Sequence record: NZ_CP067423.1
DNA from: a plasmid
Strand: one strand, 5' to 3'
DNA: 64,000 bases
In this document: positions 1-59,057 of the stretch, in pieces
Position numbering within the stretch: position 1 is the first letter of the stretch
Layout of the letters: each line of letters begins with the position of its first letter
The notes under the pieces: generated by a model
Databases searched by the model: none
Seen by the model: the letters and a program-made list of their open reading frames with translations, nothing else
What the model was told of the DNA's origin: nothing
Position numbers and translations under genes: made by a program

Positions 1-759
1 ACCGCATTCTCGACCGCTGCCTTGTCCCTCGGCTGACGCACCCGCGTCGGGACGACGGCGATCCGGTAGTGCTGGGCAAGGTCGTGGTAGCCGGGGTTGA
101 GGGTGGGATCGTAGAACGAGGCGTGGCTGACGCCGACCTTGAGGTTGTCGGGCACCAGGCGGGCCGGAGCACCGCCCAGGTGCTCCAGCAGCCGGACGTG
201 GGAGGCCAGCCAGTCCTCCGACCGCTGCGTCCAGGTCGCTTCGGCGTAGATGTAGCCGGAGTACGGCAGGCAGGCGACGAAGATCTGCGCCGGGCGGGCA
301 TCGGCGCCGACCCCGATCATCAGGGTCATGCCGGCGTAATCGACTTCCAGCGCGTCGCCCGGCAGATGGTCGCGCCGCATCCGGGGAACTGCCCGGGCGG
401 CCTGCCAGTCCCGGAAGCGCTGGACGAACTGGGTGTAGCGGTAGCCGTCGGGATGGCAAACCAGATACTCCTGCCAGAGCAGTTGGAGCGTCACGCCCCG
501 CCGGCCCAGGTCCCGCTCCACCGCTGCCCAGTCCGGCAGGGGACGTGGCTGCGCCGGCGGTGGCGGGAACAGACGCCGCTCCAGCTCCTCGTCGCTCCAC
601 TCCTTCACGTCGCCAAAGCGCAGGTCCGCGCTCTCGAGGCGGCGCAGGTAATCGCGCACCGTCGTGCGCGGCATCCGGCATGCCGCCGCGATCCGGCGCA
701 CGCTCGCCCCGAACTCATCGCGCAGCCGCAAGACTTCCCTGATGCGTCGCATGTCCGAT
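1..759 (-). CDS. istA: IS21-family transposase IstA, partial: N-terminal ~250 aa in window; the C-terminal part lies beyond the window start
   Basis: Reverse-strand translation from the ATG at 760-758 gives MRRIREVLRLRDEFGASVRRIAAACRMPRTTVRDYLRR... (HTH), then LQLLWQEYLVCHPDGYRYTQF...VDYAGMTLMIGV...YSGYIYAEAT...GGAPARLVPDNLKVGV, typical of the IstA DDE core. There is no stop codon down to position 1. The listed + ORF 69..1118 is its antisense shadow. Confidence 0.8.
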
Positions 760-855
760 CTCCCTCGCGGCATCCCACCCTCCCTGCCCATTGTCGCAAG
801 GACCCCAGTGTAGATGCCGATACAGGATCAGACGCCGCCCATCTCTACTCCCACG
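1..855 (-). mobile_element. IS21-family insertion sequence (copy 1), truncated by the window edge; the left terminal region is upstream of istA between about 760 and 855 and its exact terminus is uncertain
   Basis: istA starts at 760. IS21-family elements carry 50-200 bp of terminal sequence before istA. The boundary with the adjacent repeat array (856-948) cannot be fixed without a reference IR. Confidence 0.55.
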
Positions 856-948
856 TGTGGGCGAAATCGCCGAAACGGCAGGGCGGTTTGAACCGAAACA
901 GGGGGGCGCTTTCCCCCGAAATCAGAGGGCGGATTCAGCCGAAATATG
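856..948 (+). repeat. Array of four contiguous ~22-23-bp direct repeats beginning TGTGGGCG (units like GGGCGG-TTT/ATT-N-CCGAAA); putative transposase-binding terminal repeats of the tniABQ element (alternative reading: IS21 terminal repeats)
   Basis: tgtgggcgaaatcgccgaaacggca / gggcggtttgaaccgaaacagg / ggggcgctttcccccgaaatcag / gggcggattcagccgaaatatg. A fifth near-identical copy (ggcggattctagccgaatc) lies at 1372-1390 next to the tniA start. TGTGGGCG is the Tn7 terminal octamer. Confidence 0.65.
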
Positions 949-1148
949 CAGCGGCGCGCCCAGGCGCAAAAATGCTTCCAGTCCGCAGCGTAGGCGCGGC
1001 GGGTGTTGGCCGAGCTCGCCGCCTCGACATAATCGCGCGCGCGATCGGCCAACGCGTCGAGATGCGCCGGCAGGCGCGGATTGGCGACGGCCGGAAGAGG
1101 GGAGGGGGCTTCGGCTGACAGTTCTTCCGGGGCGCGACCCATCTCCAT
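949..1148 (-). pseudogene. Tyrosine recombinase/integrase N-terminal (core-binding domain) remnant, truncated where it runs into the repeat array
   Basis: Minus-strand translation gives MEMGRAPEELSAEAPSPLPAVANPRLPAHLDALADRARDYVEAASSANTRRAYAADWKHFCAWARRCIF, carrying the S-x-NT-x-x-AY-x-x-DW-x-x-F-x-x-W core-binding motif of XerCD-type integrases. Beyond about 949 the reading frame only encodes the periodic repeat units, so there is no catalytic domain. Confidence 0.5.
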
Positions 1149-1271
1149 GACGACATCGATGATGTCGGGCAAATCGTCCGCAGCTTTCGCCTCCAGCCCG
1201 GCCGACGACCGCAGACCTAAAGCATCGTCCTGCGCCCCCGTGCTGTGGGGCGGTGCGGAGGGTCGCGCGAG

Positions 1272-1312
1272 GCGATTTTCGGGCTTCTGCTCGACGATTC
1301 GGGCTGTCGCTC
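1272..1312 (+). repeat. Two tandem ~20-bp repeats (cgattttcgggcttctgctc / cgacgattcgggctgtcgctc), related to the 856-948 units but in inverted orientation
   Basis: Direct reading of the sequence. Motif attttcggg(c) is the reverse complement of the (g)cccgaaat core of the 856-948 units. Confidence 0.4.
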
Positions 1313-1369
1313 GCGTTTGGTCAACGGACGGCAAGTTACTGATCTGGCGCGAATCATCTTCGGAGTTCA

Positions 1370-3094
1370 TTGGCGGATTCTAGCCGAATCAGCGGATTTT
1401 TCGTAACATTCGAGCGGACGAACTTTACAGCGAGGGTGGCTGTGGTTCATGGGCCCGACAAGGAGACGGTTGATGATGCCGCCTGGAATGAGGCGGTTGC
1501 AAGGGAGGCCGTGATCCGCAGACTGGTCTCGCTCGACTGCCCCGGCCGGTCCGATTTCTTCCGGGCTTGCCGTGAACTCGGCCTCAAGCGAACCCGGCTT
1601 TACGAACTGATCAGGGCTTATCGGGAGCATCCGGTCACGAGTTCGCTGCTGCCGCGCCCGGGCGGCACGAGACAGGGCAGCCGCCGGTTGCCGGATGAGA
1701 CCGAAGCGGTAATCGCCGAAGCGCTCCGGGACTTTTACAAGACACGCCAGAAGCCGAGCATCAATCGACTGCACAAGGAGATCCGCGGGCTCTGCCGCTC
1801 GCGTGGCGTGCGCGTACCGTCCTGGCATGCGCTGAAGGCGCGGATCGAGGTCATAGACCCCGCCGAACTGACCAAGGCACGGGAAGGCTCGAAGGCAGCG
1901 CGTGATCGCTTCCACCCAGTTCCGGGAGAATATGCCGCCGAGTGCGCGTTCAACGTAGTCCAGATCGACCACACGCTGGTCGATGTCATTGTCGTCGATC
2001 GCCGATGTCGGCGGCCCCTGCAGCGGCCGTTGCTGACGCTCGCCATCGACATCGCAAGCCGCATGGTCGCGGGCTTCTACCTGACGCTCGAGGCGCCGTC
2101 GACGGTTTCGGTCGCACTCGTAATCCAGCATGTCGTGCAGCCGAAAGAGGTGTGGCTTGCCGGACTGGGCATCGATGCGAAGTGGCCGGCCTGCGGGTTC
2201 CCTGATGCCATCCACCTCGATAACGCCAAGGAATTCCGGTCGCGCGCCCTGCAGCGGGGCGCTGAGGAATATGGCATCGAGCTCATCCATCGTCCGATCG
2301 CCACTCCCCACTATGGCGGCCATATCGAGCGGCTGATCGGCACCATGATGGGCGCCGTCCATCTTCTGCCGGGCACGACGTTCAGCGACATCGACGAGCG
2401 TGGCAGCTATGATTCCGCCGCCCATGCGACGATGACTCTGGATGAACTGGAGCGGTGGATGGCGCTCGAAATCACGCGCTACCACGCCGATCGCCATGGA
2501 ACGCTGGGGATTCCGCCGCTTGCGGCATGGCACGAGGCTGCGGCCCGCCGCGTTCGGCCTGTGCGTCAGCCCCACGATCTCGCCGGCTTCACGATCGATT
2601 TCCTGCCCAGCGCCGACCGGCTGGTGCGGCGTGACGGCATTCACCTGTTCGGTCTCCGCTACTGGGATGACGTGCTGAGCATATGGGCCGGTCGGCTCGA
2701 TCGTGCGTTGCGCGTTTCCTACGATCCACGCGATCTTTCGAGGGTTTTCGTGCGCGCTCCGGATGGTACGCGCTGGCCGATCCGCTTTGCCGATCTGCGG
2801 CGCGCGCCGATCACACTTGGCGAACATCGCCGCGCTCGGACCGCCCTGCGGGAACGCGGTCTTTCGCTGGTCGACGAGCAGCTGATCTTCGAGACCATTG
2901 AGTCCCAGCGCGCACTAGTCGAGGACGCGACCAGGCGCACCAAGGCAGCGCGTCAGCTGGCGGAGAGGCGCGACCGAGCGCTGGAGGCTGCCGCGTCAAA
3001 CGCGCTGGTTGCGGCCGAGCCGGCGCAAATCGAGGATGAGCGGCCGATCGACTGGAGCAAGGTCCCCGTCTTTCCCGTCGAGGAATGGTCGTGA
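1370..3094 (+). CDS. tniA: TniA/TnsB-like DDE transposase (Mu/rve integrase fold) of a Tn5053/Tn7-like element; the true start may be the downstream ATG near 1448
   Basis: 574-aa ORF with HTH N-terminus, then ...VVQIDHTLVDVIVVD...LAIDIASRMVAGFYL...HLDNAKEFRS...IELIHRPIATPHYGGHIERLIG (DDE/rve core) and a TnsB-like C-terminal region. The ORF overlaps tniB by 10 bp. Confidence 0.85.
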   Translation: MADSSRISGFFVTFERTNFTARVAVVHGPDKETVDDAAWNEAVAREAVIRRLVSLDCPGRSDFFRACRELGLKRTRLYELIRAYREHPVTSSLLPRPGGTRQGSRRLPDETEAVIAEALRDFYKTRQKPSINRLHKEIRGLCRSRGVRVPSWHALKARIEVIDPAELTKAREGSKAARDRFHPVPGEYAAECAFNVVQIDHTLVDVIVVDRRCRRPLQRPLLTLAIDIASRMVAGFYLTLEAPSTVSVALVIQHVVQPKEVWLAGLGIDAKWPACGFPDAIHLDNAKEFRSRALQRGAEEYGIELIHRPIATPHYGGHIERLIGTMMGAVHLLPGTTFSDIDERGSYDSAAHATMTLDELERWMALEITRYHADRHGTLGIPPLAAWHEAAARRVRPVRQPHDLAGFTIDFLPSADRLVRRDGIHLFGLRYWDDVLSIWAGRLDRALRVSYDPRDLSRVFVRAPDGTRWPIRFADLRRAPITLGEHRRARTALRERGLSLVDEQLIFETIESQRALVEDATRRTKAARQLAERRDRALEAAASNALVAAEPAQIEDERPIDWSKVPVFPVEEWS

Positions 3095-4014
3095 GAGGGG
3101 AGGGGACTTTCGAGCACCTCGACGACCGCTACCGCCGCTATGCCGCTTTGCCCGACGAAGAGCGCATTGCCTGGATCAAGGCCGACCGCTGGATCGGCTT
3201 CGACCAGGCGCAAGCCGCACTTGTCCGCCTGAACGCGTTGCTTGCCTATCCCCCACGTGACCGTATGCCCTGCCTGCTGATCTATGGCGACACCGGCATG
3301 GGCAAGACCAAGATCGTCCGCAAATTCGAGCGGGCGCATCCGCCCACATTGTGTCAGTCGACGGGCGTGACCAACAGGCCGGTCGTCGTGGCCCAAGTAC
3401 CCTCGGAGCCGGTCGAGCGCGACCTCTATCGGGAACTGCTGGCCAGCCTGCAGGCTCCAGCGCTCGTCGGCGGCGCGCTTGCCCGGGAGAAAGACATCTG
3501 CCGCTCGCTGCTGCGCACCGTCGGCGCCAGAATGATCGTGCTCGACGAGGTCAACGGCATGCTGGCGGGGACCTATCGGCAGCAACGGATTTTCCTGAAT
3601 GCGCTGCGGTTTCTCGCAAACGACCTCAGAGTGCCGCTTGTCTGCGCCGGTACCGACCTGGCGCGCCAGGCCTTGCTCACCGACGCGCAGCTTGCCGAGC
3701 GCTTCGAGGCGTTTCATCTCAAGCTCTGGAAGAACGATCACGCCTTTGCGCGGCTCTTGAAAAGCCTCGCTGGCATCCTGCCGCTGCGCGCTCCGTCCGA
3801 TCTCGAAACGGACGCGGTTCGTGAAAGGATCCACACGCTCACCAGCGGCGTCACGTTCAGGATTTTCCAGCTGATCGAGACGGCAGCCGAGGAGGCGATC
3901 CGGTCGGGGAAGGAACGGCTCGACCTGATGAGCTTCGGCGATGATCTTGTCCTTCCGCTTGTGTCGATGACGCAATCGGCACGCCGGCGGATGCCGCAGC
4001 CGGCGGCCGGGTGA
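3085..4014 (+). CDS. tniB: TniB/TnsC-like AAA+ ATPase, transposition regulator
   Basis: 309 aa with Walker A YGDTGMGKTKIV and Walker B MIVLDEVN. The start overlaps the tniA stop and the stop overlaps the tniQ start (ATGA). Confidence 0.85.
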   Translation: MVVRGEGTFEHLDDRYRRYAALPDEERIAWIKADRWIGFDQAQAALVRLNALLAYPPRDRMPCLLIYGDTGMGKTKIVRKFERAHPPTLCQSTGVTNRPVVVAQVPSEPVERDLYRELLASLQAPALVGGALAREKDICRSLLRTVGARMIVLDEVNGMLAGTYRQQRIFLNALRFLANDLRVPLVCAGTDLARQALLTDAQLAERFEAFHLKLWKNDHAFARLLKSLAGILPLRAPSDLETDAVRERIHTLTSGVTFRIFQLIETAAEEAIRSGKERLDLMSFGDDLVLPLVSMTQSARRRMPQPAAG

Positions 4015-5185
4015 TGGAGCCGGATCGTCTGCCCGTGGCGCCGCGGCCCTTTCGCGACGAATTGCTGTCCTCCTGGATGGCGCGGGTGGCATGCCGCTAC
4101 GGCCTTACGGCGCAGCAACTAGCCGGCTATTTCAGTGGCCTGTCGTCACCCCTGCCGATAGACGACGGGGCTCCGGCGGCCGGGCAGACGAGGGTTTGGG
4201 CACAGATCTGCAGTGTCGACCCCGATCGGTTGCATCGCCTGTCCCTGAGCTGGCGCTACCCGCGACGCGCTCGAGCCTGGTACGTAAGCAGGGGACCGGA
4301 ATGGACGCCGTCGGCGATGTCCGGGTCTATCCCAGTCTGTCTCGCTTGCTTCGCTGCCGATCGCGCTGCGGGCCACGACGCGCATCTTCGAGCCGGCTGG
4401 ATGCTCGCCGAACGCTGTATCTGCCCAACTCATGGCGAGTTGCTGCACGATCACTGCGTATCGTGCCACTGGCGTCTTTCCGTGGCTTTCCACCTGCACG
4501 ACGGAAGCGCGCGGCCTGTCTGCAGCCATTGCGCGCGGCTTCTCACCGATAGGGGAGGGAGGGCGGTCAGCCACAGGATCCCGCCCTCCTGGCGACGGCG
4601 CTGGCCACCCAGCAGCGGATCACGGCAAGCGTCAACGGTGAAAATCCCGAGGGCGACAGGCTCGAGAAGGCGCTCTCAGTGCTCTGGGCGCCGCTCGACC
4701 ATCCGGCAGCAGCGCGGCCGGTGCTGGCGCTGTGGTTCAACGAAGCCGGCTGGCGCTGTCCCTATGAAGCCAGGCATGCCGTCGGCGCCAAAACTCCGCT
4801 CGGCCAGTTGCCGGTGCGCTGGCGCTTCCTGACGCTGCTGGCTCTGGACGACGTTTTCGGTACCGATCCGCGCGTGGACGGTGCAATGCCGCCTGTCGCC
4901 GCTCATCTCGCCCGGCGGGCCGCGCCACGACCGATCCGCCTCTCAAGGCCAAGCCGACGGCCGCACGTCCAGCTGCTGAAGCGCTCGGCGGCCGAGTACG
5001 AGCGCCTGGCACGTCAAATTCTGGCTGATCCGAACTGGACCGCAGCGGAAGAGCTGCCCCCGCGAAAGCGAGAGCGTGTCCGGGCTCGGCTGATCGATGC
5101 TGCGCTTGCCGGGAATCCGGCGTCACCCGGGGCATGGTTGTCGCCCAAACTATCGAGCGACGAGCAGGCGATTCAGAAATGCTGA
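4011..5185 (+). pseudogene. tniQ: TniQ/TnsD-like target-selection protein, disrupted by a 1-nt frameshift in the G-run at 4551-4566
   Basis: Frame 0 ORF 4011..4832 starts MMEPDRLPVAPRPFRDELLSSWMARVACRYGL (typical TniQ N-terminus). It reads protein-like through ...HCARLLTDRGG, then becomes Arg/Ser-rich junk. A second frame is blocked by TAG at 4550 but reads protein-like from 4553 (GEGGQPQDPALLATALATQQRI...LSVLWAPLDHP...) to the stop at 5185. The combined length of about 390 aa matches TniQ. Confidence 0.7.
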
Positions 5186-5554
5186 GACTGCGTGCTGCGG
5201 GGCGTAGTCTCACGAATTTCGATTCATCCGGCCGTACAAGGATGCACGAGATTTCGTCCGCAAGCCCGATTGACGTCGATATCGGCATTCTGCTCGACGA
5301 GAGAGGCTGCCCGCTGCCGCTGTCCGGGGATTAAGCGCAAACCCGGTCCGCTCAATGAACGCGAATTCTCGTCGATCTGACGCCTAAAGGAGACTGTCCG
5401 CCGGTGAAAAGCGAGCCACAAGGCCATTTTTTAAGGGGTCTCACAAAACGAGCGATAATGCAAGATTATCATTCATTATTGTTTGCCGACAGGCAGGGCG
5501 CTTTAGGCATATTATCGTTGTCAAAAGCGCCGCCGTGATTCATCCTGCTTTTCG

Positions 5555-6595
5555 ATGATTCTGCGGCCCAAACTCCTCTCGCGCCACCCCGGCAAGCTTC
5601 TTGACGCGGTGGCCGTCGCTCCGTGGGCCCTGGTCCCGGCCTGGCTGCGCCGGGCAATCCCGGATGCGCAAAGCGTTGCGGGAAAGGAAGTTGAGGAGGT
5701 CGCGCTTGCTGCCGGTGCTGCTATCGGCGCCCTCGATGCGGTAGTCCGCCGGCAGGAACGGTGGGCCGGGGTCTGGCGGCAGCGCCTGGCGCTTGTCGCG
5801 GCCGCGGTGACGGCACGACAGGCCGGCCGCGTCGAGGATTCTTTGGCATTGCGCGACGCCGTGCTGCTGACACGCCCCGGCGATTTTTTGTCCGTTGGCC
5901 CGGCCGGGCTTTTGCTGCTCGCCTGGCGCCGGTTGGTCGACACGCCTGCCGAGAAACTGCTGACCGAGCGGAGCATCGGCGCGGTGTTGGAAGAACTCGG
6001 CTACGCCCCGGATGAAGAGGTGGTCAGCGCTCTGGTGGGGGAACTCGGTCAGATCGGCGGCGGGGCAGAGACGGTCGGGATGCTGACCGGTGCTTTTGTG
6101 GCCGCCGAACGCTATGGTTTTGGGCCGGCTTTCGGCGCCTGGCTCGCCGACGGTCTGCTGGCGCAGCGGCTGGCGTGGCCGCATGCAATACCGCTGCTGG
6201 GCACCGAAGCTGCTTTTTTTGGCATGCGTGCCGGGCATTCACGTCGGGCGGCGACCGGTATGGCGGCAGCGGGCCCTGAGACAGAGCCGGAGCGTGCCAA
6301 AAAACTGCTGGCGGCACAGGCGCGGGCGGCGCTGCGCGCCATCGATCTTTTTGCTGAGCTCGGCCGCCGTGCCGAAAAACTGCTGGCCGTCGCGCCGAAA
6401 CTCAGGGCCAAGGGAGCGGACGCGATCGTCGACCGGTTGTTGAACGAAGACGCGCTCATGGCCTCGCGCGGGGACAAAAAAATGGACAAAAAGATGAGTG
6501 ACCGGGGGCTACGCCGCCTGTTCGACCGGCTTCTTGTCCTGGGTGCCGTGCGTGAGCTGTCCGGTCGCCCGACCTTCCGCACCTACGGACTGTGA
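5555..6595 (+). CDS. Conserved hypothetical protein (DUF1403-like), found adjacent to scpB on rhizobial replicons
   Basis: 346-aa ORF, protein-like composition, preceded by an AT-rich promoter region (5440-5550). The assignment to DUF1403 is from memory of the family, not a search. Confidence 0.55.
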   Translation: MILRPKLLSRHPGKLLDAVAVAPWALVPAWLRRAIPDAQSVAGKEVEEVALAAGAAIGALDAVVRRQERWAGVWRQRLALVAAAVTARQAGRVEDSLALRDAVLLTRPGDFLSVGPAGLLLLAWRRLVDTPAEKLLTERSIGAVLEELGYAPDEEVVSALVGELGQIGGGAETVGMLTGAFVAAERYGFGPAFGAWLADGLLAQRLAWPHAIPLLGTEAAFFGMRAGHSRRAATGMAAAGPETEPERAKKLLAAQARAALRAIDLFAELGRRAEKLLAVAPKLRAKGADAIVDRLLNEDALMASRGDKKMDKKMSDRGLRRLFDRLLVLGAVRELSGRPTFRTYGL

Positions 6596-6597
6596 CG

Positions 6598-7320
6598 ATG
6601 GCGGCTCGTTCGACCAAAACTCGGCGAGACAATGGGGATGGGCAACGACCGTTGCTTGACCGGGAGCTGGATCACCTGCCGCCGGAGGCGCGCTGGCGCG
6701 AATGGATGCAGCGCGTTGAGGCAACCATTTTTGCCGCCAGCGAGCCGGTGACACGTAGTGTCCTCGCGCGGGTGGTTGGCGCGGATTGCAACCTCGATCT
6801 CTTGATCGACGACATTCGCGAGGAGCTGCGCGGGCGGCCTTACGACCTGGTCGCCGTCGCCGGCGGCTGGAAACATTTGACCCGGCCGACCTATGCCGAC
6901 GCCATCCGCGCCGCTATGGGCGGCAGTGAGAAGGCGATGGATCTCACGCAATCCGAGGTGCTGGTGCTGATGTGCGTGGCGTATTTCCAGCCGATCACCC
7001 GCGCCGAGTTGTCGTCTTTCTTCGGCAAGGAGATCAGTCGTGATTTTATTGGTCATCTGCGCGGCGCGAAGCTGATTGCGTCCGGCCCGCGCAGCCCGAC
7101 GCCCGGCGCGCCCTACACCTACGTGACGACCAAAGAATTCCTGTTGGAGTTCGGCCTCGACACGCTGCGCGACCTGCCGGATTTCGAGGCGCTCGAAGAC
7201 GCCGGGTTGCTGTCGAAGGAGAAGCTGCTGGCAGGGGATATTCCGATGGGGATTGCGGGCGGTGAAGATGATGGCGAGGACGAGCAGCCGAGCGTCGGTC
7301 TCGTCGACGACGCGATGTGA
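6598..7320 (+). CDS. scpB: Segregation and condensation protein B (ScpB)-like
   Basis: Start overlaps the upstream stop. The sequence ...EATIFAASEPVTRSVLARVVG...EELRGRPYDLVAVAGGWKHLTRP...LTQSEVLVLMCVAYFQPITRAELSSFFGKEISRDFIGHL... shows the tandem winged-helix ScpB pattern, with an acidic tail. Confidence 0.7.
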   Translation: MAARSTKTRRDNGDGQRPLLDRELDHLPPEARWREWMQRVEATIFAASEPVTRSVLARVVGADCNLDLLIDDIREELRGRPYDLVAVAGGWKHLTRPTYADAIRAAMGGSEKAMDLTQSEVLVLMCVAYFQPITRAELSSFFGKEISRDFIGHLRGAKLIASGPRSPTPGAPYTYVTTKEFLLEFGLDTLRDLPDFEALEDAGLLSKEKLLAGDIPMGIAGGEDDGEDEQPSVGLVDDAM

Positions 7321-8164
7321 TGAACGGATCATCCTGGTTTTCCTGCGCCCGCCGATGAGAACTCATGACCATGACGACTGATCGTGCGACAGGCGATGAC
7401 CGGTGAACCTACATGGCGTTGCCGTCAAGCAGGCTGGCCGGAAATAGCACCAACTTGGTGCCGCCGGCATAGCGTCGCGGCGAGAACAGGATGTCACGAA
7501 ACCCTGCTGCTTGACCTGGTCGGCGGGCTTCCAGGAAGATTCTGATGCTGTCCCGTGTCTTCCTGACGACCAGCACGAAAGCGAATTTGCTCGTGCGAAC
7601 AAGGCCGGTCTATGCCGATGCGTCGTCTGGCGGGGCAGTTCGCTTTGGAGCGGTTTGGTGATCGCTGAGGGTCTGGGAGAGACTGTGCAGCGCCCTCAGC
7701 AATTCTCCCATCGCCATACTGTGGGACAGCCCGTCTTTTTCGACGACCTTGATCAGCGCCTCGATATGGGCGCTGTCGGTATCCCACGGATTCGAAGAAG
7801 TTTTCATAAAGCATCGATTCAGGGGCAACGCGCGGGCGGCCAGGAGCGGGATGCCGCCCGCCGTGTTGCCTGATTTGCGTACTCGTTACCTGGCGCGAAT
7901 CCCAATCTCGCTGATTATGGTTAAAATAGCATTACAGACTGCGTTTGAATCAGCACCGAAGCATGCCGCTTTGTCGGGCGGATGCAGCGGCACGAGGGCA
8001 ATGCCCGTGTCGAACGGACACGACAGGATGGCCTGCTCGATTGTCAGAAACTGAAAGCGAACAGTAGATGTCGGTGTGATCGCCAGGACTGCTGAGCGAC
8101 CTTACGGAATTCGAGGATTTCGGCTGCCCGCTTTGGCATCGAATGCTCGGTCGTGGTGATTGAG

Positions 8165-8354
8165 TGTGAAATCGCACCGAACAGTAACCCCGCGTCGAGC
8201 AGGATTTATCGACCTGATTTCATTGCGAAAATTAGAATTGTCCAAGGATCTAAGAAGGCGCAAATCGCAACCCTTCGAAAATCTGGGAAAGAGCAGCTGA
8301 ATCAGACACTTGAGCATGCTGGTGCTTGGGGTTACTGTTCGGCGCGATTTCACA
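8165..8354. mobile_element. MITE-like palindromic intergenic element, copy A (~190 bp) with 27-bp terminal inverted repeats
   Basis: Left arm tgtgaaatcgcaccgaacagtaacccc (8165-8191); right arm ggggttactgttcggcgcgatttcaca (8327-8354), its reverse complement with one mismatch. The interior is about 80% identical to copy B at 10258-10451. Confidence 0.7.
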
Positions 8355-8614
8355 ACGTGTATGCGAAACTGATAAAGGTGAAGGCCGCGCCACCTCGATG
8401 ACAACCTTGTCCGCTACAATGTCGCTTGCACCTATTCGCTGCTGGGCGAGACTGATGGTGCCATCAAATTGCCGGAAATTTGCCTGAAGCAGTTTGGGAC
8501 CGACATGAAGCAATGGATCAAAAACGACTCTCGATCTCATCCGGGATCATCCGGCAATCAGACGCTTTTAGCGCCGTATTGATGTCCGTCAGCAATGCTA
8601 TGTTAGGAAGTCAA

Positions 8615-9403
8615 ATGGCTGAGCCGCCCTATCGCGTCCAGGCGTTCAACAGCGCCACGCACTCCGAAAACAGGATGCACGATGATGCGGTGGCGCAAAA
8701 ATATGGCTTCAGCGGCGGCCTGGTGCCAGGCGTCGATGTCTTTGCGTATATGGTCCACGTTCCGGTGGCGAAGTGGGGACGAGCCTTCCTCGAGCGCGGC
8801 CTGATGGAGGTGCGCTTCGCGAAGCCGGTTTACGATGGCGAAACCGTGGTGGTTACGTCCGAGCCTTCAGACGAAGGCCTAGCGATTGCGCTCAACGGCA
8901 GCGACGTTCGAGCTGCCGGCAGTGCCTCGCTGCCGGACGCGCCACCCCCGATCTCCGTTGGCGATTATCCCGAGACTGCGCCGGTTGCGGTGCGGGGGCC
9001 GGTCGATCTCAGGTCTTACCAGGTCGGCAAATGGCTCGGAACGGCGCCGCGCTCCTGGCCGGGCCAATCTGGAGCGGACTATCGGGCGGAAGTACGCGAA
9101 ACCGATCCAATCTATGCTCGCGAAGGGTTGGTGCATCCCGGTATGGTGCAGCGGGTTATGAACCGGGTCTTGATGGAGAACGCTTTACTGGGGCCGTGGA
9201 TTCATCTCGGCAGCCGCATGCAGATGCTGTCCACAGCTGCTTGCGATGAAGAGTTGGTCGCGCGGGCACGCGTTACCGCGAACTACGAAAAGAAGGGCAA
9301 CCGTTTCGTGGAAGTAGATGCCGTTGTTGTTGCGAACGGCCGGAAGTTGATCGCCCACTGCCAGCACATCGCGATCTATCAACTTCGCGAACGAGCAGCG
9401 TGA
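8615..9403 (+). CDS. MaoC-like (R)-specific enoyl-CoA hydratase / hot-dog fold dehydratase; start assigned to the ATG at 8615 with an AGGAAG RBS
   Basis: N-terminus AEPPYRVQAFNSATHSENRMHDDAVAQKYGFSGGLVPG matches the MaoC-like signature. The long ORF 8480..9403 includes an unlikely N-terminal leader. Confidence 0.65.
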   Translation: MAEPPYRVQAFNSATHSENRMHDDAVAQKYGFSGGLVPGVDVFAYMVHVPVAKWGRAFLERGLMEVRFAKPVYDGETVVVTSEPSDEGLAIALNGSDVRAAGSASLPDAPPPISVGDYPETAPVAVRGPVDLRSYQVGKWLGTAPRSWPGQSGADYRAEVRETDPIYAREGLVHPGMVQRVMNRVLMENALLGPWIHLGSRMQMLSTAACDEELVARARVTANYEKKGNRFVEVDAVVVANGRKLIAHCQHIAIYQLRERAA

Positions 9404-9606
9404 GGCACAAGGCTGTCGAGCAGCATCGTCACCGGCGCACCCGGTTCTGCAGGCCGTCAAAACAGATAAGGGAACGCAAGACACGCACGTGACAATCGCT
9501 CCACCAGACGCGGACGGGGATTCTAGTCGCCTTTCAAGTTTGTCCCCCAGGACAGCCCGTGTCTGCTTCGGCGGCGCGGGCATCCTTACAACGAAAGCAA
9601 TCAAAG

Positions 9607-10257
9607 ATGCCCAATGCGGCGCTGGTATATCCCGATACGAAGCTCTTTATTGATGGCGAATGGCGTGAGGGTCGCGAATGCCGGACTATTCCGGTTATTG
9701 ATCCGGCGACCGAGGAGACGATCGGCTCGGTTGCACATACCGCGCGCCGGATCTCGACGCCGCGCTGGCCGCCGCCGATCGCGGCTTCAAACTCTGAAGC
9801 TCAACCTCGGCGTTTGATCGGTCTAAGCTGATGTGCAAGGCCGCCGGCTTGCTGCGAGAGCGCGGAGATCGCATCGCCTGGCTCCTGACGCGCGAGCAAG
9901 GCAAACCTTTGGCAGAGGCCAAGGGCGAAGTGATGGCGGCGCCGACATCATCGATTGGTTCGCTGAGGAGGCGCGCCGCACTTGCGGCCAGGTGATTCCG
10001 GCGCGCGCGCGAAGAGCCATGCAGATGACGCTCAAAGCTGCCGGTCGGTCCGGTGGCCGCGTTCACGCCCTGGAACTTCCCGTCAATCAAACAGTGCGCA
10101 AGCTCTCCGCGGCGCTCGCCGCCGGCTGCTCGATCATCGAAGGCGCCGGCACCGCCGCCGGCGGCGCCTGCCGAGCTCCTTGGCGCCTTCGTCGATGCCG
10201 GCGTGACCGCCGGGGGTCGTCACTCTGGTCTCTGGCGCGCCGGGGGAGATCTCCGAG
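9607..10257 (+). pseudogene. Aldehyde dehydrogenase pseudogene: several frameshifts, 3' end truncated by MITE copy B
   Basis: MPNAALVYPDTKLFIDGEWREGRECRTIPVIDPATEETIGSVAHTA..., then ALDH-like segments in shifting frames (...DLDAALAAADRGFKLW..., ...LLRERGDRIAWLLTREQGKPLAEAKGEV..., ...DIIDWFAEEARR..., ...[11 protein letters not shown]...). Only about 215 codons precede the MITE arm at 10258; a full ALDH is about 480 aa. Confidence 0.7.
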
Positions 10258-10451
10258 TGTGAAAATGCGCCGGCCAGTGACCCCGCGTCGAGCAGGATTT
10301 GTCGTGCTGATTTCATTGCGAAGATGAGTGTTGTCCTAGGGATCTCAGAAGGCACGATTGTGACCCTGCGAATCTCACAAAGAGCAGCTGTATCAAACTC
10401 TTGAATGTTCCAGTACCTAGGGTCACTGGCCGGCGCATTTTCGCAGCCGAT
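10258..10451. mobile_element. MITE-like palindromic intergenic element, copy B (~194 bp) with 23-bp perfect terminal inverted repeats
   Basis: Left arm gaaaatgcgccggccagtgaccc (10261-10283). Its reverse complement is at 10428-10450 (gggtcactggccggcgcattttc). The arm sequence differs from copy A, but both arms have changed together. Confidence 0.7.
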
Positions 10452-10560
10452 CGCCTAATCAGATTCACGCGCTCGAAGGCGCACTGAGTCAGTCGGTCTG
10501 GTCGGCATCGAGGTATCGTCCCTCGGTTCATTACGCTTCGGCACCTTGGGGTCGATTGCA

Positions 10561-11289
10561 CTATTTGGTAGTTTGTTCCGGCGCCGCGTGGAGAGTCTGC
10601 CATGTGGCCAGGGCTCGGGACAAGTGTCGGTCCATCATTCCCACTGCCAAATCGGTTCGACGAGCCTCAATGGCTTCAAGTATCTCACAATGATCGTCGT
10701 AAGCTTGCGTGCCCCGTGAGTAATCTGAAAAGTATATTATGCGACGCTGTTTTGAGAATTCATAAAATAATTTCACCGTGCGAAGCAGTACTCTATTCTG
10801 TGTTGAAGCGACGATTCCAAGATGGAACGCTTCATCCTCAGCCTCAATTGTCTTTTTGCTATCAATTGCAAGCTTCGTTTTGTAGAGGATTTCCCTCAGC
10901 CGATCTACGTCCTGATCCCGCCTTCTATCGCAGGAAATCCGTACGCCCTGCAGCTCCAGAATACTTCGCACTTCAAACACGTCCTTAGTCTCTTCAGGCT
11001 GAAACGGCAGGCCAGAAGACGCACGAAGAACGAGGGCCTCGATGCTACTTTCCTCAGAATTTCTAAGATAGATCCCAGAGTTAGGCCTTCGCTCAATCAC
11101 ACGCATCGACTCGAGAGCGGCCAAAGCCTCGCGAACCGCCCCGCGACTGACATTGAACCTGTCGGCAAAGTCACGTTCCGACGGCAATCGTTCGTTCGGC
11201 TCATAGCGACGCTCATCAATGAATGAGAGTATTTTCCCTACAACGTTCGGGACACCGGCAATCCTATCGCTTTCCGTCTTCTCAAGCAT
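10561..11289 (-). CDS. GntR-family transcriptional regulator, FadR subfamily (N-terminal wHTH plus FCD effector domain)
   Basis: MLEKTESDRIAGVPNVVGKILSFIDERRYEPNERLPSERDFADRFNVSRGAVREALAALESMRVIERRPNSGIYL..., then a helical FCD-like C-terminal region. About 50% GC, lower than the flanks. Confidence 0.8.
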   Translation of the reverse strand: MLEKTESDRIAGVPNVVGKILSFIDERRYEPNERLPSERDFADRFNVSRGAVREALAALESMRVIERRPNSGIYLRNSEESSIEALVLRASSGLPFQPEETKDVFEVRSILELQGVRISCDRRRDQDVDRLREILYKTKLAIDSKKTIEAEDEAFHLGIVASTQNRVLLRTVKLFYEFSKQRRIIYFSDYSRGTQAYDDHCEILEAIEARRTDLAVGMMDRHLSRALATWQTLHAAPEQTTK

Positions 11290-11409
11290 TTTTCGGTCTT
11301 TTTTCCAGCCGTCAGTCCATCCCAACCAGGTCCATCCCGATACGGAAGGGTCATAAATCATACGCGTTGCTTGGCAACTCGAACCCAAAGTACCAGTGAA
11401 ACCCTAGCC

Positions 11410-11431
11410 GGTCTACCAAATTGGTTAATCC
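11410..11431. promoter_or_regulatory. Operator-like palindrome ggtctaccaaattggttaatcc, ~120 bp upstream of the GntR gene
   Basis: Contains GGT-CT-ACC and ACCA-AAT-TGGT inverted half-sites, the FadR-subfamily operator style. Related CCAAATTGG motifs recur at 17224-17330, 28756-28785 and 31411-31446. Confidence 0.45.
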
Positions 11432-11616
11432 GGCTCCGCGCTGAAGCTGCCATATGCCCGATGGTTAAGCCACCCGTTCATTAAACTCCCCACGGCATGC
11501 CTTGCGCGTAGAGATGGCCAAGCGCGGCGCCCGGCCAACACCAAGCCGATGGCCTAGCCGTAAACGCCGTCCGCCGTTCAGGGCCTTCCTCTATCGCCAC
11601 CGCACCCTCGAGACGC

Positions 11617-11690
11617 AGGTCGAAACTACCTTGCTCTCGTCAAACTCATTTCAGCTAAAATCTAGATGCAATTCATGGGTCGGTGACCTA
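11617..11690 (+). repeat. Direct repeat, copy a (~70 bp), upstream flank of the ethD-like gene
   Basis: aactaccttgctctcgtcaaactcatttcagctaaaatctagatgcaattcatgggtcggtgacc aligns at about 80% identity with 12167-12240 (aactactttgctctcgtcaagcgcgcttcagccaaaatctggatgcgctctatgaaccggtgaag). Confidence 0.55.
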
Positions 11691-11738
11691 TAAATGCCCC
11701 CGGAACGCTCGGAGAGGCGTTCAGGTAGGAGCCCGACC

Positions 11739-12053
11739 ATGATCAAGATGAGCGTCTACTATCCGGCCCATGGCGGCTCGAAGTTCGACCACGATTACTA
11801 CTGTGCCAGCCACCTGCCACTGATCAGAGAACGAATGGGCGATGCCTGCCTGCGCTACGAGATCGAGAAGGGCCTAACGGGCCGCGAACCTGGAAGCGCG
11901 CCGGAGTTCGTCGCAGCGTGCCACATCTACTCACCGAGCCTGGGGACATTCCGGGAGGCGTTCGGCCCACACCGCGCGGAGATCGTCGCGGACGTCGCCA
12001 ACTATACGGACATCGCACCCATCGTGCAGATCAGCGAAATCGTTGGAGCGTAA
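11739..12053 (+). CDS. EthD-family (Dabb/antibiotic-biosynthesis-monooxygenase-like fold) small protein
   Basis: MIKMSVYYPAHGGSKFDHDYYCASHLPLIRERMGDACLRYEIEKGL..., about 104 aa, with an AGGAG RBS upstream of the ATG at 11739. Confidence 0.55.
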   Translation: MIKMSVYYPAHGGSKFDHDYYCASHLPLIRERMGDACLRYEIEKGLTGREPGSAPEFVAACHIYSPSLGTFREAFGPHRAEIVADVANYTDIAPIVQISEIVGA

Positions 12054-12166: not shown

Positions 12167-12240
12167 CGACAACTACTTTGCTCTCGTCAAGCGCGCTTCA
12201 GCCAAAATCTGGATGCGCTCTATGAACCGGTGAAGTAGAC
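12167..12240 (+). repeat. Direct repeat, copy b; downstream flank of the ethD-like gene
   Basis: See copy a. Together they bracket a ~480-bp segment holding only the ethD-like gene. Confidence 0.55.
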
Positions 12241-33118: not shown

Positions 33119-34554
33119 TGACAACCTTGCATGCTAACCTGATCGATGGAGCTTGGGTCGAAGGCGAAGCCGCGCCGAACATTAACCCCTCCAACACCAA
33201 CGAAGTCGTCGGCACCTATGCGCGTGCTACTCGAGCTGACTCCCAAGCCGCGATCGCCGCCGCTAAACGTACGTTCCCGACATGGTCGCGCACGAGCCCT
33301 TTGGAGCGTCACGCGGTGTTGCGCAAGGCGGCAGACGAAATTCTCGCCCGCAAGGACGAACTCGGCCGACTTTTGTCGCGCGAGGAAGGCAAATCGTTGG
33401 CCGAAGCAGTCGGCGAAACGATTCGTGCGGCCCAGGTTTTCGATTACTTCGCGGGCGAAACGCTACGGCTGGCCGGCGAAACGTTGCCCTCTGTGCGTCG
33501 GGGTGTCGTGGTGGATGTGACGCGTGAGCCGGTCGGCGTGATCGCTATCATCACGCCGTGGAACTTCCCAATCGCCATTCCGGCGTGGAAAATTGCGCCG
33601 GCGCTCTGCTACGGCAACACTGTGGTATTCAAGCCGGCTGATCTCACCCCTGGCTGCGCTTGGGAGCTGGTTGACATTCTCCACCGCGCCGGGCTGCCAA
33701 AGGGCGTACTCAATCTCGTAATGGGCCGTGGTTCGGTCGTCGGCCAGACCATGCTCGATAGCCCCGACGTAGATGCGATAAGCTTCACAGGCTCAGTGGA
33801 GACCGGCCGGCGTGTGGCGGCCTCCTGCGTCGAACACGGCAGGAAGTTCCAACTCGAGATGGGCGGTAAGAATCCGCTGGTCGTGCTCGATGATGCGGAC
33901 CTCAACGTGGCGGTCGACTGCGCCGTCAACGGTGCATACTTCTTAACTGGCCAGCGCTGCACGGCTTCCTCACGGCTGATCGTCACCGAAGGCATCCACG
34001 ATCGTTTTGTCTCGGCAGTTACCGAAAAGCTTAGGAGCCTCGTCGTCGACGACGCGCTCAAGCCGGGAACGCAGATCGGTCCGGTGGTGGACGAGAACCA
34101 ACTCAGTCAGGACGAGAAGTATATCGCCATTGGCCGTGAGGAGGGCGCTAAGCTGGTGTGTGGAGGCGAAAGGCTGAACCGTGAGACGCCCGGCTTCTTC
34201 TTGCAGCCTGCCTTGTTCACCGAGGCAACCAATAATATGCGCATCAGCCGCGAAGAGATTTTTGGTCCCGTCGCGGCGGTAATTCGTGTCAAGAATTATG
34301 AAGAGGCGCTGGAGACCGCGAACGATACGGCATTCGGCCTGTCCTCGGGGATCTGCACGGCCAGCCTGAAACATGCGACGCACTATAAGCGCAATGCCGA
34401 CGCCGGCATGATTTTTGTCAATCTGCCCACTGGCGGCGTCGACTTCCATGTGCCGTTCGGCGGCCGCAAGGCATCGAGCTTCGGCCCTCGCGAACAGGGC
34501 CGCTACGCCGCCGAGTTCTACACGACCGTCAAAACGGCCTATACGCTGGCCTGA
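33119..34554 (+). CDS. NAD(P)+-dependent aldehyde dehydrogenase
   Basis: MTTLHANLIDGAWVEG..., ITPWNFP, catalytic LEMGGKNP (Glu) and GQRCTASSR (Cys), ...EEIFGPV.... Confidence 0.9.
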
Positions 34555-55886: not shown

Positions 55887-56177
55887 GCCCCGACCTGCGA
55901 TCAGGAGGGCAGCCCTGTCCGAAACCGTGTGGCGGGCTGTGCGGGTAACGGGGCAATATCCGGGTAGGGCCTGCGGCGACTGTCCGGCCGTGATGCCGGC
56001 GAAGCGGATTGATCTGTCGCACTTCCTCGCGCGAGCCAATTCATGGAAACGACCCCGTGCCGGTCTTCCCGGCGGGTTTGCTGCGGTCTGAACCGGCGGC
56101 TGACCCCTTCAAGGCCGCTTTGCGCCGCGATGCGGCCGGAGCCCGCCGGTCTCGACAAGGCTGGCCCGCGTTCCGCG

Positions 56178-56198
56178 CAGGGCTGTTAGCCCCGCTTG
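56178..56198. promoter_or_regulatory. Second copy of the GGGCTg(a)TTAGCCC palindromic motif, ~145 bp upstream of the 56340 gene
   Basis: gcagggctgttagccccgcttg; see 52429-52451. Confidence 0.4.
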
Positions 56199-56339
56199 TC
56201 CGCAAGCCAACCTTGCTCGCCTGGCAGGCCCCGGACCCTGAAGCGTCCAGTTTCCGCCGGTTCTCTTTGACCGCACCCGCAGGGAAGACCGGCACGGGGC
56301 CGGATCGCCCGAAGGGCATCGCTAGAAAGGATTGCTTCA

Positions 56340-56926
56340 TGTCCAGTTCAACCCGCTCCACCAAGACCAAGGCTCGCGTCGTCCAACTCCGCAAGGGCAC
56401 CACCCTCGAAATGGTGCGCCTGTGCTGCCCGGATGCCAACCAGGCCGCACTCATCTCCGAGAGCTTCGGGCTCGCTGTCCTCGACAGCGACGGTATCCGG
56501 GACTTCCACGAGCGCACCCTGATCGAAAGCGCCGACACCCTCTCCGACGGCCTTTCCGAGAAGGCCATGCAGATCCATCTCCAGCGGATCGTCGGTTCCC
56601 ATGTCGGGTCTGCCTACGGGGCGGGGCAGTTCTATTCCAAGGCTGTCACCGAGGCCAAGGACGCGACCGCCCGGCTCGCCAACGACATGCGCGATGAGGA
56701 TCGCGACGGCCCGGTCGGGTTCGACAGCGCCGCCCAGCGCAAGCGTGAGTTCGCCGCCGACATGGGTATCCAGGCCCACGCTCTGCGCATGGCCGCCGAG
56801 GGCGTGGTCGCAGCCTACGAGCACATCGTCGGCGAGAGCTGGAAGCCCTACGAGCGTCAGGCCGAAAATCCCGGCCAGGCCGTCAGCCGGCAGGCCGCCG
56901 ACCTGCAGATGGCCGCTCTCGGATAG
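56340..56926 (+). CDS. Hypothetical protein (195 aa)
   Basis: MSSSTRSTKTKARVVQLRKGTTLEMVRLCCPDANQAALISESFGL...; the longer ORF starts at 56009. Confidence 0.5.
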
Positions 56927-56933
56927 GGGCCGC

Positions 56934-56955
56934 GGGCGGAGCTTCGGCTCCGCCC
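56934..56955. terminator. Bidirectional terminator hairpin gggcggagc-ttcg-gctccgccc between convergent genes
   Basis: 9-bp perfect GC stem with a TTCG tetraloop, 8 bp after the stop at 56926 and upstream of the minus-strand gene ending at 57004. Confidence 0.65.
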
Positions 56956-57003
56956 ATCCTCGGGGGCTCCCACCCTTGGGATCGCCCGCCGTTCGAACGC
57001 CAT

Positions 57004-57327
57004 CTATCCCGAGGAGTATCGTCTCGAGGTTGAGGGACTTATCGAGGCATGGCGGCCGGAAGTGTGGGCCCGTTCGACAGAATCCCGCCTCGGCTGATAG
57101 CCTCGCATCCTCTTAGCTCGCAACAGGTCGAGGAATAGGCTGACCGCATCTAGCTCGTTGTCGAACGAATGCTGGACCGTTCGGCCTCGTGTTCCGATCC
57201 GGCCCCACCGGCGAACGAGGCGGGTCTGGCCGAACAGGGTCTCCTCGATCGACAGCGCGTAGAACCGCGCCATCCTCCGGTCCGGGTCTGTGCGTTCGAC
57301 ATAGAGATGGTATGGCTGCGCGATCAT
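57004..57327 (-). CDS. WGR-domain protein
   Basis: MIAQPYHLYVERTDPDRRMARFYALSIEETLFGQTRLVRRWGRIGTRGRTVQHSF....AKRMRGYQ matches the WGR signature (W-G-R-I-G-x-x-G). Confidence 0.6.
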   Translation of the reverse strand: MIAQPYHLYVERTDPDRRMARFYALSIEETLFGQTRLVRRWGRIGTRGRTVQHSFDNELDAVSLFLDLLRAKRMRGYQPRRDSVERAHTSGRHASISPSTSRRYSSG

Positions 57328-57711
57328 GCTGAGCAGAATCGCGCAGCCGGAATCCGTCGTCCAATGACAGGTTTGAATCACTGGGAAGGGATCGATTTAT
57401 TCCCGTGATAGGTGGCGGGAACTTCAGCAGGTATAGGGCGGCCTTACCCGCGTCCGGCTTGCGCGGGACCGGGAGACGGAGGGAAGCAGGAAGACGCATG
57501 GCGCGGCCGGCGCAATCGCGGCCGTCACGATTGGTGGTCCTGCTCCGGTCCTCGTTCCGCGAAACGGCGAAGCCGTCCTCCACTGCCGTTCCGGCCCGGC
57601 TGCGACCTCTCTCATTCTTCCGATTCATCCTCCGGGTTCGCGGACCTGCGGTCCTCTCGCGGGCGGACCTCGTGACGGCCGCGATCGGCGCGGCCTCGAA
57701 TGGAGGTTCGA

Positions 57712-58638
57712 ATGATGAACAGGAAAGACAGCAAACCCCGCGTCGACATCTACGCGAAGATCACCGACCGCATCGTCGCGGATCTCGAGAAAGGCGTCCG
57801 CCCATGGGTAAGACCCTGGAGCGAAGCCAACACCGCCGGCCGCATCACGCGACCGCTGCGGCATAATGGAACGCCCTACCAGGGCATCAACATCATCCTG
57901 CTCTGGTCGGAGGCGGTCGCACGCGGCTTCGCTTCGCCCATCTGGATGACGTTCAAGCAAGCGATCGAGCTTGGCGGGCATGTCCGCAAGGGCGAGAGCG
58001 GCTCGACCGTCGTCTATGCCAGCCAATTCACCAAGACCGAAACCGACGAGCGCGGCGATGAGGTCGAGCGCGGTATCCCGTTCCTTAAGGCCTATTCGGT
58101 CTTCAACGTCGACCAGATCGAGGGATTGCCGGACCACTATTACGGTGCGCCGCCGCCGGTGACCGATCCCGTCACGCGCATCGCCCACGCTGATGCGTTT
58201 TTTGACGCGACCGGCGCCAGGGTCGTCTATGGCGGCGCCAAGGCATTCTACGCGCCCTCGTCCGACCACATCCAGCTCCCAGTCTTCGAGAGCTTCCGCG
58301 ACGCGGAATCCTTCGTTGCCGTCAGGGCGCACGAGACCATCCACTGGACAGCTCCGGCCCACCGGGTCAACCGCGATCTCAGCCGCTACCACAAGGATCG
58401 TAGCGAACGCAGTCGCGAGGAGCTGATCGCCGAACTGGGGGCGGTTTTCCTCTGCGCCGATCTCGGCATCGTACCGGAGCTCGAGCCGCGGCCTGACCAC
58501 GCCAGTTACCTCGCGTCCTGGCTCGAGGTGCTCTCCAACGAGAAGCGCTTCATTTTCTCGGCCGCCGCGCACGCTCAACGCGCAGCGACCTACCTGCACG
58601 ATCTTCAGCCGGCGGCCAGGATTGCGGAGGCGGCCTGA
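57712..58638 (+). CDS. ardC: ArdC-like antirestriction protein (N-terminal ssDNA-binding domain plus C-terminal zincin HExxH metalloprotease domain)
   Basis: MMNRKDSKPRVDIYAKITDRIVADLEKGVRPWVRPW... (ArdC-N) and ...AVRAHETIHWTAPAHR... (HExxH). GGAGG RBS. Confidence 0.85.
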   Translation: MMNRKDSKPRVDIYAKITDRIVADLEKGVRPWVRPWSEANTAGRITRPLRHNGTPYQGINIILLWSEAVARGFASPIWMTFKQAIELGGHVRKGESGSTVVYASQFTKTETDERGDEVERGIPFLKAYSVFNVDQIEGLPDHYYGAPPPVTDPVTRIAHADAFFDATGARVVYGGAKAFYAPSSDHIQLPVFESFRDAESFVAVRAHETIHWTAPAHRVNRDLSRYHKDRSERSREELIAELGAVFLCADLGIVPELEPRPDHASYLASWLEVLSNEKRFIFSAAAHAQRAATYLHDLQPAARIAEAA

Positions 58639-59057
58639 TGCCAGGGCCCGACCGTTGCCGTGCGGGAACTCTGCCGCTGGCCGGTCAATGACGGGAGGTC
58701 GGGATGGGGATGGCACCTCTCGCCGCGCGGGGATCCGCAAGGTGATGCCGATGTAGGGACGTCCGTCTTCATTCCGGTTGTTTCTGCTACGGGCACGCCC
58801 AACTGCGTCCTCGATGTGGCTGGTCTGACCGAAGGCCGATCTCGCTGCGCTCGGTCTCGCTCTCATCCCCGCAACGGCTGGTCTCGACTTTCTTCCCCTG
58901 ACGGCTTCGCCGCCATTCCGCGCGGATCAAGAAAGTCTCATCCTGCCGCCCTCCACTGACGTTCCGGCCCGTTGGGTGCCGGTCGATCGCCTCCGGTCTG
59001 TCGACCGCCATCGAGGTCGCGGCGGTCGCGGCCCGAGAAATCAAAGGAATGAGACAA

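Follow-up and report, generated by a model that had tools for sequence, protein, structure and literature searches.

The copies and their locus

Two related non-coding elements, here called copies A and B, lie on either side of a MaoC-family dehydratase gene in a stretch of 64,000 nucleotides (the window; sequence record NZ_CP067423.1) of a repABC-type plasmid of ~107 kb. The remnant of an adenylate/guanylate-cyclase-family gene adjoins A, and the remains of an aldehyde dehydrogenase (ALDH) gene run up to B (Table 1). An original prediction, made from the letters of this DNA, had described the pair as resembling miniature inverted-repeat transposable elements (MITEs) that bracket the maoC-like gene, one of them cutting short a frameshifted ALDH pseudogene, and so much has held up: the elements are short and non-coding, have terminal inverted repeats and occur with unrelated flanks in many genomes. 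As argued below, A and B are diverged members of an undescribed low-copy family of ~190-bp MITE-like elements, which are probably non-autonomous and derived from the ends of a transposon.

Table 1. Copies A and B, their parts and the genes beside them (positions in the window)
Feature	Position	Strand	Remarks
Copy A, MITE-like element, 190 bp, subfamily 1	8165..8354	+	family sequence model R1: 101 bits, E = 6e-30
Copy A, left terminal inverted repeat TGTGAAATCGCACCGAACAGTAACCCC	8165..8191	+	96% complementary (26/27)
Copy A, central palindrome, decayed	8245..8274	+	6/15 pairs kept; family consensus GGGGTCACGATCGGCGCCGATCGTGACCCC
Copy A, right terminal inverted repeat GGGGTTACTGTTCGGCGCGATTTCACA	8328..8354	+	a 74-bp deletion polymorphism ends at this tip
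Adenylate/guanylate-cyclase-family gene remnant, 5'-truncated	8382..8582	+	last 66 codons; starts ~28 bp from the right tip of copy A
MaoC-family dehydratase gene, intact	8615..9403	+	from annotation; between copies A and B, context outside the element
ALDH pseudogene	9607..10257	+	frameshifted; ends at ~230 of 461 profile positions, exactly at the left tip of copy B
Copy B, 188 bp, same orientation as A	10258..10445	+	family sequence model R1: 92 bits, E = 3e-27
Copy B, left terminal inverted repeat TGTGAAAATGCGCCGGCCAGTGACCC	10258..10283	+	25/27
Copy B, central palindrome, decayed	10338..10367	+	6/15 pairs kept
Copy B, right terminal inverted repeat GGGTCACTGGCCGGCGCATTTTCGCA	10420..10445	+	inverted-repeat match to the left arm

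The predicted span of copy A was exact and that of copy B, taken to 10451, overshot by 6 nt. Three motifs quoted as common to the copies are present exactly in both and nowhere else in the window. The arms of A are 27 nt long with one mismatch; those of B are 26 nt long, also with one mismatch and with 23 nt pairing perfectly, as had been stated (25/27 in the family arm alignment), and in each the arms are 136 nt apart. A and B are identical at 145 of 191 positions (76%) over the whole element and at 76% in the core, a little below the ~80% first estimated, and at 78% and 74% in the two arms. Over the 60 nt outside each end they are ~50% identical, that is, unrelated, so the copies are not pieces of a larger duplication, a finding that had been named in advance as refuting the idea. 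The differences between A and B at arm positions 8, 9, 16, 17 and 22 occur on both arms and are compensatory.

Model R1 finds A and B to be the sole family copies in the window and the remaining 50 kb of the plasmid, and no arm-like sequence was found elsewhere in either. (A weak arm-like match at window positions 33171-33189 was dismissed: it lies inside a coding region, is devoid of the terminal TTTCACA and is missed by the model.) Folding of both strands, as had been proposed, gives predicted energies of z = -5.4 to -7.6 relative to shuffled sequences, a signal that is driven by the arms. A scan of the element for promoters and terminators yielded a single 9/12 promoter-like match and terminators not above chance. 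Copy A recurs at 99-100% identity next to other flanks (in L009/L008/L031/L035, L015, L020 and L016/L021), and identical copies of B are found in L014, L015, L035 and L005.

A dispersed family and its architecture

Members of the family were collected by scanning a genome collection with a core motif and a metagenome set with an arm motif, and by BLAST of PLSDB with several members as queries; the motif scans required near-exact motifs, and a divergent partner could have escaped them. Sixteen distinct full-length members have been aligned, and there are remnants besides. The full-length members, with unrelated flanks, come from Aminobacter, Nitratireductor, Rhizobium, Neorhizobium, Bradyrhizobium, Nitrobacter, Methylobacterium/Methylorubrum and Microvirga. 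Incomplete members (right-hand remnants in Mesorhizobium, a partial copy in Allorhizobium and a short variant in Sphingomonas) bring the spread to at least 12 alphaproteobacterial genera, and there are also members in several metagenome-assembled genomes (MAGs), in soil metagenomes and in one IMG/VR contig. Scans of viral contigs gave 0 and 1 matches, and an association of the family with phage was rejected on that account. Copy number is low (two on this 107-kb plasmid, up to seven matching places on a 2.1-Mb replicon); most members are solitary and lie in ordinary intergenic regions of chromids, near genes that include maoC, gntR, moaA, EAL, senB and similar ones.

Members are 186-191 bp long, with a GC content of 0.48-0.52 in surroundings of ~0.6. 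Each end is a 27-nt arm with the invariant tip TGTG.A or its complement (TGTG..CACA), and in many contexts the flanks diverge immediately beyond TGTG and CACA. A left spacer of ~52 nt, containing CCARGATTAAT, and a right spacer of ~52 nt with a different sequence enclose a 30-bp central palindrome (consensus in Table 1), of which most members keep 11-14 of the 15 pairs. The two spacers are neither inverted nor direct copies of each other; the polarity of the element is therefore fixed. Both halves of the central palindrome are close in sequence to the inner arm sequence, ATCGCGCCGAACAGTGACCCC, and nearly every member consequently has four GGGGTCAC boxes, placed at ~20, 80, 102 and 163 (spacing 60, 22 and 61 bp).

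Three other ways of looking at this layout were abandoned. Six-frame translations of 14 members contain no conserved reading frame, which disposes of a small open reading frame (ORF) shared by the family. A long perfect-type palindrome or a tandem dimer does not fit spacers that are without inverted or direct similarity (z mostly <2). A likeness of GGGGTC boxes to the repeat tips of the Tn3 family is superficial, since they are wrongly oriented relative to the ends of the element.

One subfamily, subfamily 2, includes the full-length copies L022, L025, L029 and L033, with unrelated flanks, and L028 is a 107-bp derivative with an internal deletion. The copy on plasmid 1 of Nitrobacter hamburgensis (L041, 1428-1610), considered at one point to be a half element, is a full-length copy in reverse orientation whose last ~6 nt are missing. 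A shorter, divergent variant lies outside the Hyphomicrobiales, on a Sphingomonas paeninsulae plasmid (L046, 1152-1308), with a TGTGAA...TTCACA pair only ~80 bp apart around the central palindrome. In a Hyphomicrobium MAG (L016, 2550-2737) there is a variant of copy B with GGC changed to CAA in the left arm and one substitution in the right, leaving 21 of 27 arm positions matched; this could be real divergence or an artefact of the MAG consensus.

Of the known dispersed repeats, bacterial MITEs (the Correia/NEMIS elements of Neisseria, MITEs derived from insertion sequences and the Tn3-derived TIMEs) come closest. They share with this family a size of 100-300 bp, the absence of coding content, terminal inverted repeats (26-27 nt here), intergenic dispersal with unrelated flanks, subfamilies, internally deleted derivatives and ends that are tied to rearrangements. 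By the usual marks of a MITE the family is under ~600 bp, non-coding, sharply bounded by terminal inverted repeats and present in multiple copies with unrelated flanks; the mark that it lacks is the target-site duplication. It differs further in its low copy number, in having no autonomous partner that our searches could find, and in its conserved central palindrome that repeats the inner arm sequence. The RIME and Sm-repeats of rhizobia, which the original prediction had proposed for comparison, and the Bru-RS1/2 repeats of Brucella are likewise palindromic, intergenic and at home in the same bacterial order. RIME, Sm-repeats and Bru-RS elements are ~100-175 bp long, not 190 bp with a four-box layout, and among the replicons in PLSDB none from S. 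meliloti matched any family query. A literature search by name and by sequence motif turned up no relevant description.

The fixed positions and spacing of the GGGGTCAC boxes, the intergenic locations and a central palindrome that is the most conserved part across genera, down to asymmetries such as GGTCATCATCGG (kept in Neorhizobium, Microvirga and Rhizobium), are what one would expect of a dispersed platform on which a host or plasmid DNA-binding protein assembles in a regulatory or architectural role, with the arms as two of its sites. That account leaves the sharp outer boundaries, the dispersal, the internally deleted derivative and the tip-precise deletions described below unexplained. 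Moreover, A and B have lost the central palindrome and yet keep near-perfect arms. We consider a binding platform very improbable.

Matched ends or a selected hairpin

The co-variation first seen between A and B is real and general across the family. When the arms of 15 distinct members are aligned, 85.7% of the cells are paired and both sides have changed at 14 of the 27 pairs; none of 500 shuffles reaches the observed values, and sliding the partner arm by 1-3 columns reduces pairing to 34-40%. The original prediction took such co-variation to mean that a hairpin or cruciform is preserved rather than a sequence, and pointed to a structured RNA or to transposition chemistry that copies one arm on to the other. 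Neither proposal has fared well.

If the element functioned as a folded single strand of RNA or DNA, after the manner of REPIN/REP-RAYT systems or of a structured non-coding RNA, then the arm stem and the central hairpin would be the functional parts and co-variation would be the mark of selection for pairing. The changes on both sides at 14 pairs, arms of A and B that have diverged as fast as the core and still match at 25-26 of 27 positions, and predicted folds far more stable than those of shuffled sequences all speak for this. So does the lack of target-site duplications, which fits elements of the REP/REPIN type (these are typically without them). The details of the arms speak otherwise. 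Complementarity ranges from 17/27 to 26/27 across members; A and B are the two best cases, and several members stand at only 17-21/27, so that the non-complementary copies named in advance as refuting the hairpin do exist, if only in part. The 76 arm cells that are not Watson-Crick pairs comprise 18 G.T, 22 A.C and 36 of transversion type, indicating wobble tolerance on neither strand. Four full-length subfamily-2 copies share mismatched pairs at position 12 (G opposite A) and position 20 (A opposite C) despite their unrelated flanks. The tips and several arm positions are conserved in sequence: positions 1-2, 6 and 10 are invariant across genera, and 3-5, 11, 14-15 and 24 nearly so (GC at 10-11, CG at 14-15).

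The rest of the element is no more accommodating to a folded strand. The 52-nt spacers do not pair with each other, and changes in the central palindrome are one-sided, with some of its asymmetries kept across genera. Folding of the alignment supports the arm stem only, with a covariation term of -0.87 kcal/mol, and in that fold the right arm has two competing partners, the left arm and the central GTGACCCC. The covariance models of Rfam 15 find no relevant match at E <= 10 in window positions 7500-11500 and none at E <= 1 in eight other members. REP/REPIN-RAYT systems do share with this family inverted arms that evolve in concert, an intergenic location and the lack of target duplications, but their defining short REP palindromes, high copy number and repeat-flanked RAYT gene are not found on this plasmid. 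The arms of this family are 27 nt long, not self-palindromic and 136 nt apart, its spacers are asymmetric and conserved, its copy number is low and one of its subfamilies has fixed arm mismatches; no IS200/RAYT-like gene is present in the annotation of the plasmid. REP/REPIN elements also attract insertions of the IS110 family, of which there is one case here: an IS110-family transposase gene adjoins the Nitrobacter copy (L041), which has lost its last ~6 nt. We judge a functional folded strand distinctly unlikely, and retrons do not enter into consideration, no reverse transcriptase gene being found next to any copy.

The fixed mismatches of subfamily 2 also bear on the copying of one arm on to the other, since they imply that the two arms are inherited separately and not regenerated from each other at each move. 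Taken together, the 17-26/27 range of complementarity, the lack of a wobble bias, the fixed mismatches, the invariant positions, the absence of Rfam matches and the one-sided changes of the palindrome favour matched ends over a hairpin. Judging by sequence, the co-variation looks like the co-evolution of transposon ends, that is, of matched sites recognized by a protein, rather than like that of a selected RNA hairpin.

In the transposon-end account that we prefer, the element would consist of the fused ends of a transposon, mobilised in trans. The 27-nt arms would be its terminal inverted repeats, with cleavage and joining at the TGTG..CACA tips, and the inner arm sequence would be a putative binding site of the mobilising protein. 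Two more copies of that site, placed head to head, would build the central palindrome and so generate the four regularly spaced boxes, making GGGGTCAC/ATCGGCGCCGA a candidate protein-binding motif. Both ends would have to fit the same protein, and lineages propagated with different variants of that partner would shift both ends together. Template switching between inverted repeats is a known mutational mechanism, and an occasional correction of that kind may add to the matching. It is to such partner variants, perhaps helped by template-switch correction, that we would ascribe the matched arm divergence between A and B; the identity of the enzyme and the chemistry of transposition we likewise infer. 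The TG..CA tips (TGTG..CACA here) and the several binding repeats per end (the repeated inner arm motif here) are also features of transposons of the Tn7, Tn5053, Mu and IS21 types, and a TniABQ module and an IS21-like element lie nearby on this plasmid. Those families make 4-8-bp duplications, unlike the elements considered here, and the order of internal sites in Tn7-like ends is different.

Several observations weigh against a transposon-end origin. None of 18 independent insertions has a target-site duplication of 3-9 bp; flanking matches of 2 bp occur in five of the 18, with 1.3 expected, and are at best a hint of duplication. A search of PLSDB and the genome-collection, metagenome and viral scans, for which near-exact motifs were needed, brought to light no longer element that combines these ends with a transposase gene, and none was found in the 20 kb around a Bradyrhizobium copy. 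The two local candidates fail. The homology of the TniABQ module stops at ~7250, 900 bp before copy A (and a remnant of the element is present on pOM4 without TniABQ), so the arms are not the ends of that module; and any relation of the arms to the IS21-like end at window positions 860-951 was rejected by local alignment (p = 0.12-0.9 against shuffles). The part best conserved across distant genera is the central palindrome, not the arms. Finally, divergence between A and B has gone equally far in the arms and in the core (74-78% identity compared with 76%), and yet each pair of arms stays matched; this is not what simple purifying selection on a single binding sequence would lead one to expect.

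The family could also be a class of its own among small mobile elements, one whose insertion leaves no target duplication and whose ends have to match each other rather than a fixed sequence. The ends might then be recognized as paired single strands by a non-DDE enzyme, to give one example, and the four GGGGTCAC boxes might serve as a scaffold for assembly. We regard this as unlikely, though worth keeping in mind: if true, such a class would be shaping plasmid accessory regions across the Alphaproteobacteria through tip-precise deletions. Concerted evolution of the inverted ends, the missing target duplication and the lack of a known partner make an unusual combination, which, if it holds, offers a tractable case for how transposon ends stay matched. 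The family would be notable only if the missing duplication and the matched evolution of its ends reflected a new mechanism of mobilisation; as matters stand it is moderately unusual, and useful for annotation and for understanding plasmid mosaicism.

Rearrangements at the tips and the plasmid setting

The ends of the family are, or recently were, recombinationally active, since deletions in near-identical relatives end exactly at the tips of copy A. From copy A rightwards these relatives have at least 98% identity to the window, and it is exactly at the A tips that they depart from it. In N. arenosus (L009/L014) and in a metagenome contig (L035) the upstream TniB-TniQ-DUF1403-ScpB region is only ~78-80% identical to the window; at the left tip of A identity jumps to 98-99%, and it holds at that level over more than 8 kb, copy B included. 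In L009 the GGDEF-EAL gene that lies between ScpB and copy A is intact. In L015 a segment of 1,843 bp (L009 5646-7488) is missing, one endpoint being exactly the left tip of A and the GGDEF-EAL gene being cut, in sequence that is 99.8-99.9% identical on either side. At the right tip of A begins a second difference: 74 bp (8355-8428), including part of the cyclase-gene remnant, are present in the window, L016 and L021 and missing in L008, L009, L015, L031 and L035, where the remnant is shorter by that length and joined directly to the tip.

Thus a truncated gene or a rearrangement endpoint adjoins at least three of the window's four tips, and in no case does the missing half lie beyond the element. 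Such a pattern is the signature of end-adjacent deletion, as in intramolecular transposition, and not of simple insertion. The deletions that the ends generate begin precisely at a tip, and this explains both the truncation of flanking genes without their other halves (those for ALDH and the cyclase, and GGDEF-EAL in a relative) and the position of copy A at the border between old and recently exchanged plasmid DNA. Because the tips coincide with gene truncations and with that border, the family accounts for local pseudogenes and for mosaicism in catabolic and symbiotic plasmids.

The bracketing of a gene by A and B, junctions that fall exactly at the tips and lead to different neighbours, 18 insertions without target duplication and a tyrosine integrase gene 7 kb away could also suggest that a site-specific recombinase acts on the arms, as on integron attC or plasmid pdif sites, with the DNA between or beside the copies as exchangeable modules. 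This we hold to be most improbable. The arms of A and B contain none of the GTTRRRY/RYYYAAC core sites of attC, and a cassette array is absent. High identity continues through B for more than 6 kb further, so the A-B interval is no discrete module; most members are solitary, in intergenic regions of chromids; and where relatives differ at a junction, sequence has been deleted, not swapped. The integrase, for its part, belongs to an integrase-TniABQ module found on more than 1000 plasmids, most of them without the element. Each of the three alternatives (folded strand, binding platform and recombinase site) is accordingly less likely than a family of transposon ends.

The tips of family members may also be hot spots for insertion: in metagenome contig L020 (89-150) a Tn3-family transposon has inserted 3-5 bp from the tip of copy A, and the IS110-family gene beside L041 has already been mentioned. 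An empty site for the Rhizobium copy was not found among its relatives, which lose homology 20-50 bp before the element; it therefore lies near a break in synteny and is not a clean insertion.

The family is unannotated in every record examined, with a spurious hypothetical ORF called over the element in some; it is carried by plasmids and chromids of many soil and symbiotic Alphaproteobacteria. In the window, the RefSeq hypothetical protein WP_139274564.1 (8250-8540, minus strand), which spans the cyclase-gene remnant into copy A, is almost certainly such a spurious ORF. By tblastn the remnant itself aligns, at 52-63% identity and with E values down to 8e-15, with the terminal parts of cyclase genes annotated in rhizobia. 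The ALDH pseudogene matches Aldedh profile positions 58-93 and 88-158 in different frames, and its ORF fragments include FTPWNFP.

Window positions 7000-12000 match three Aminobacter plasmids at 100% identity: pMDW3 (of strain MDW-2), the NyZ550 plasmid and the SR38 plasmid, all repABC replicons with Ti-type transfer genes. At window positions 1-951 an IS21-family element (istA), 100% identical to one on a plasmid of Skermanella sp. TT6 and with several CCGAAA repeats in its end, splits the tyrosine integrase gene that is intact in pMDW3; at this point, therefore, the window departs from the three deposited plasmids. The integrase-TniA-TniB-TniQ-hypothetical-DUF1403-ScpB module that follows (~951-7250) recurs as a single conserved block on more than 1000 alphaproteobacterial plasmids, and the homology always stops near 7205-7254. 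With its Tn5053-like genes joined to DUF1403 and ScpB it looks like a backbone or domesticated module.

Further to the right, a 46-nt direct repeat (~85% identical; 11624-11669 and 12171-12216) flanks an EthD-family gene and constitutes the second small repeat pair of the same accessory region. Window positions 56000-59600 are 74-86% homologous to the backbone of a Mesorhizobium plasmid, which includes DUF736 and ArdC-like genes, and it is this same backbone that bears the right-hand remnants of the element in Mesorhizobium (L003, L013).

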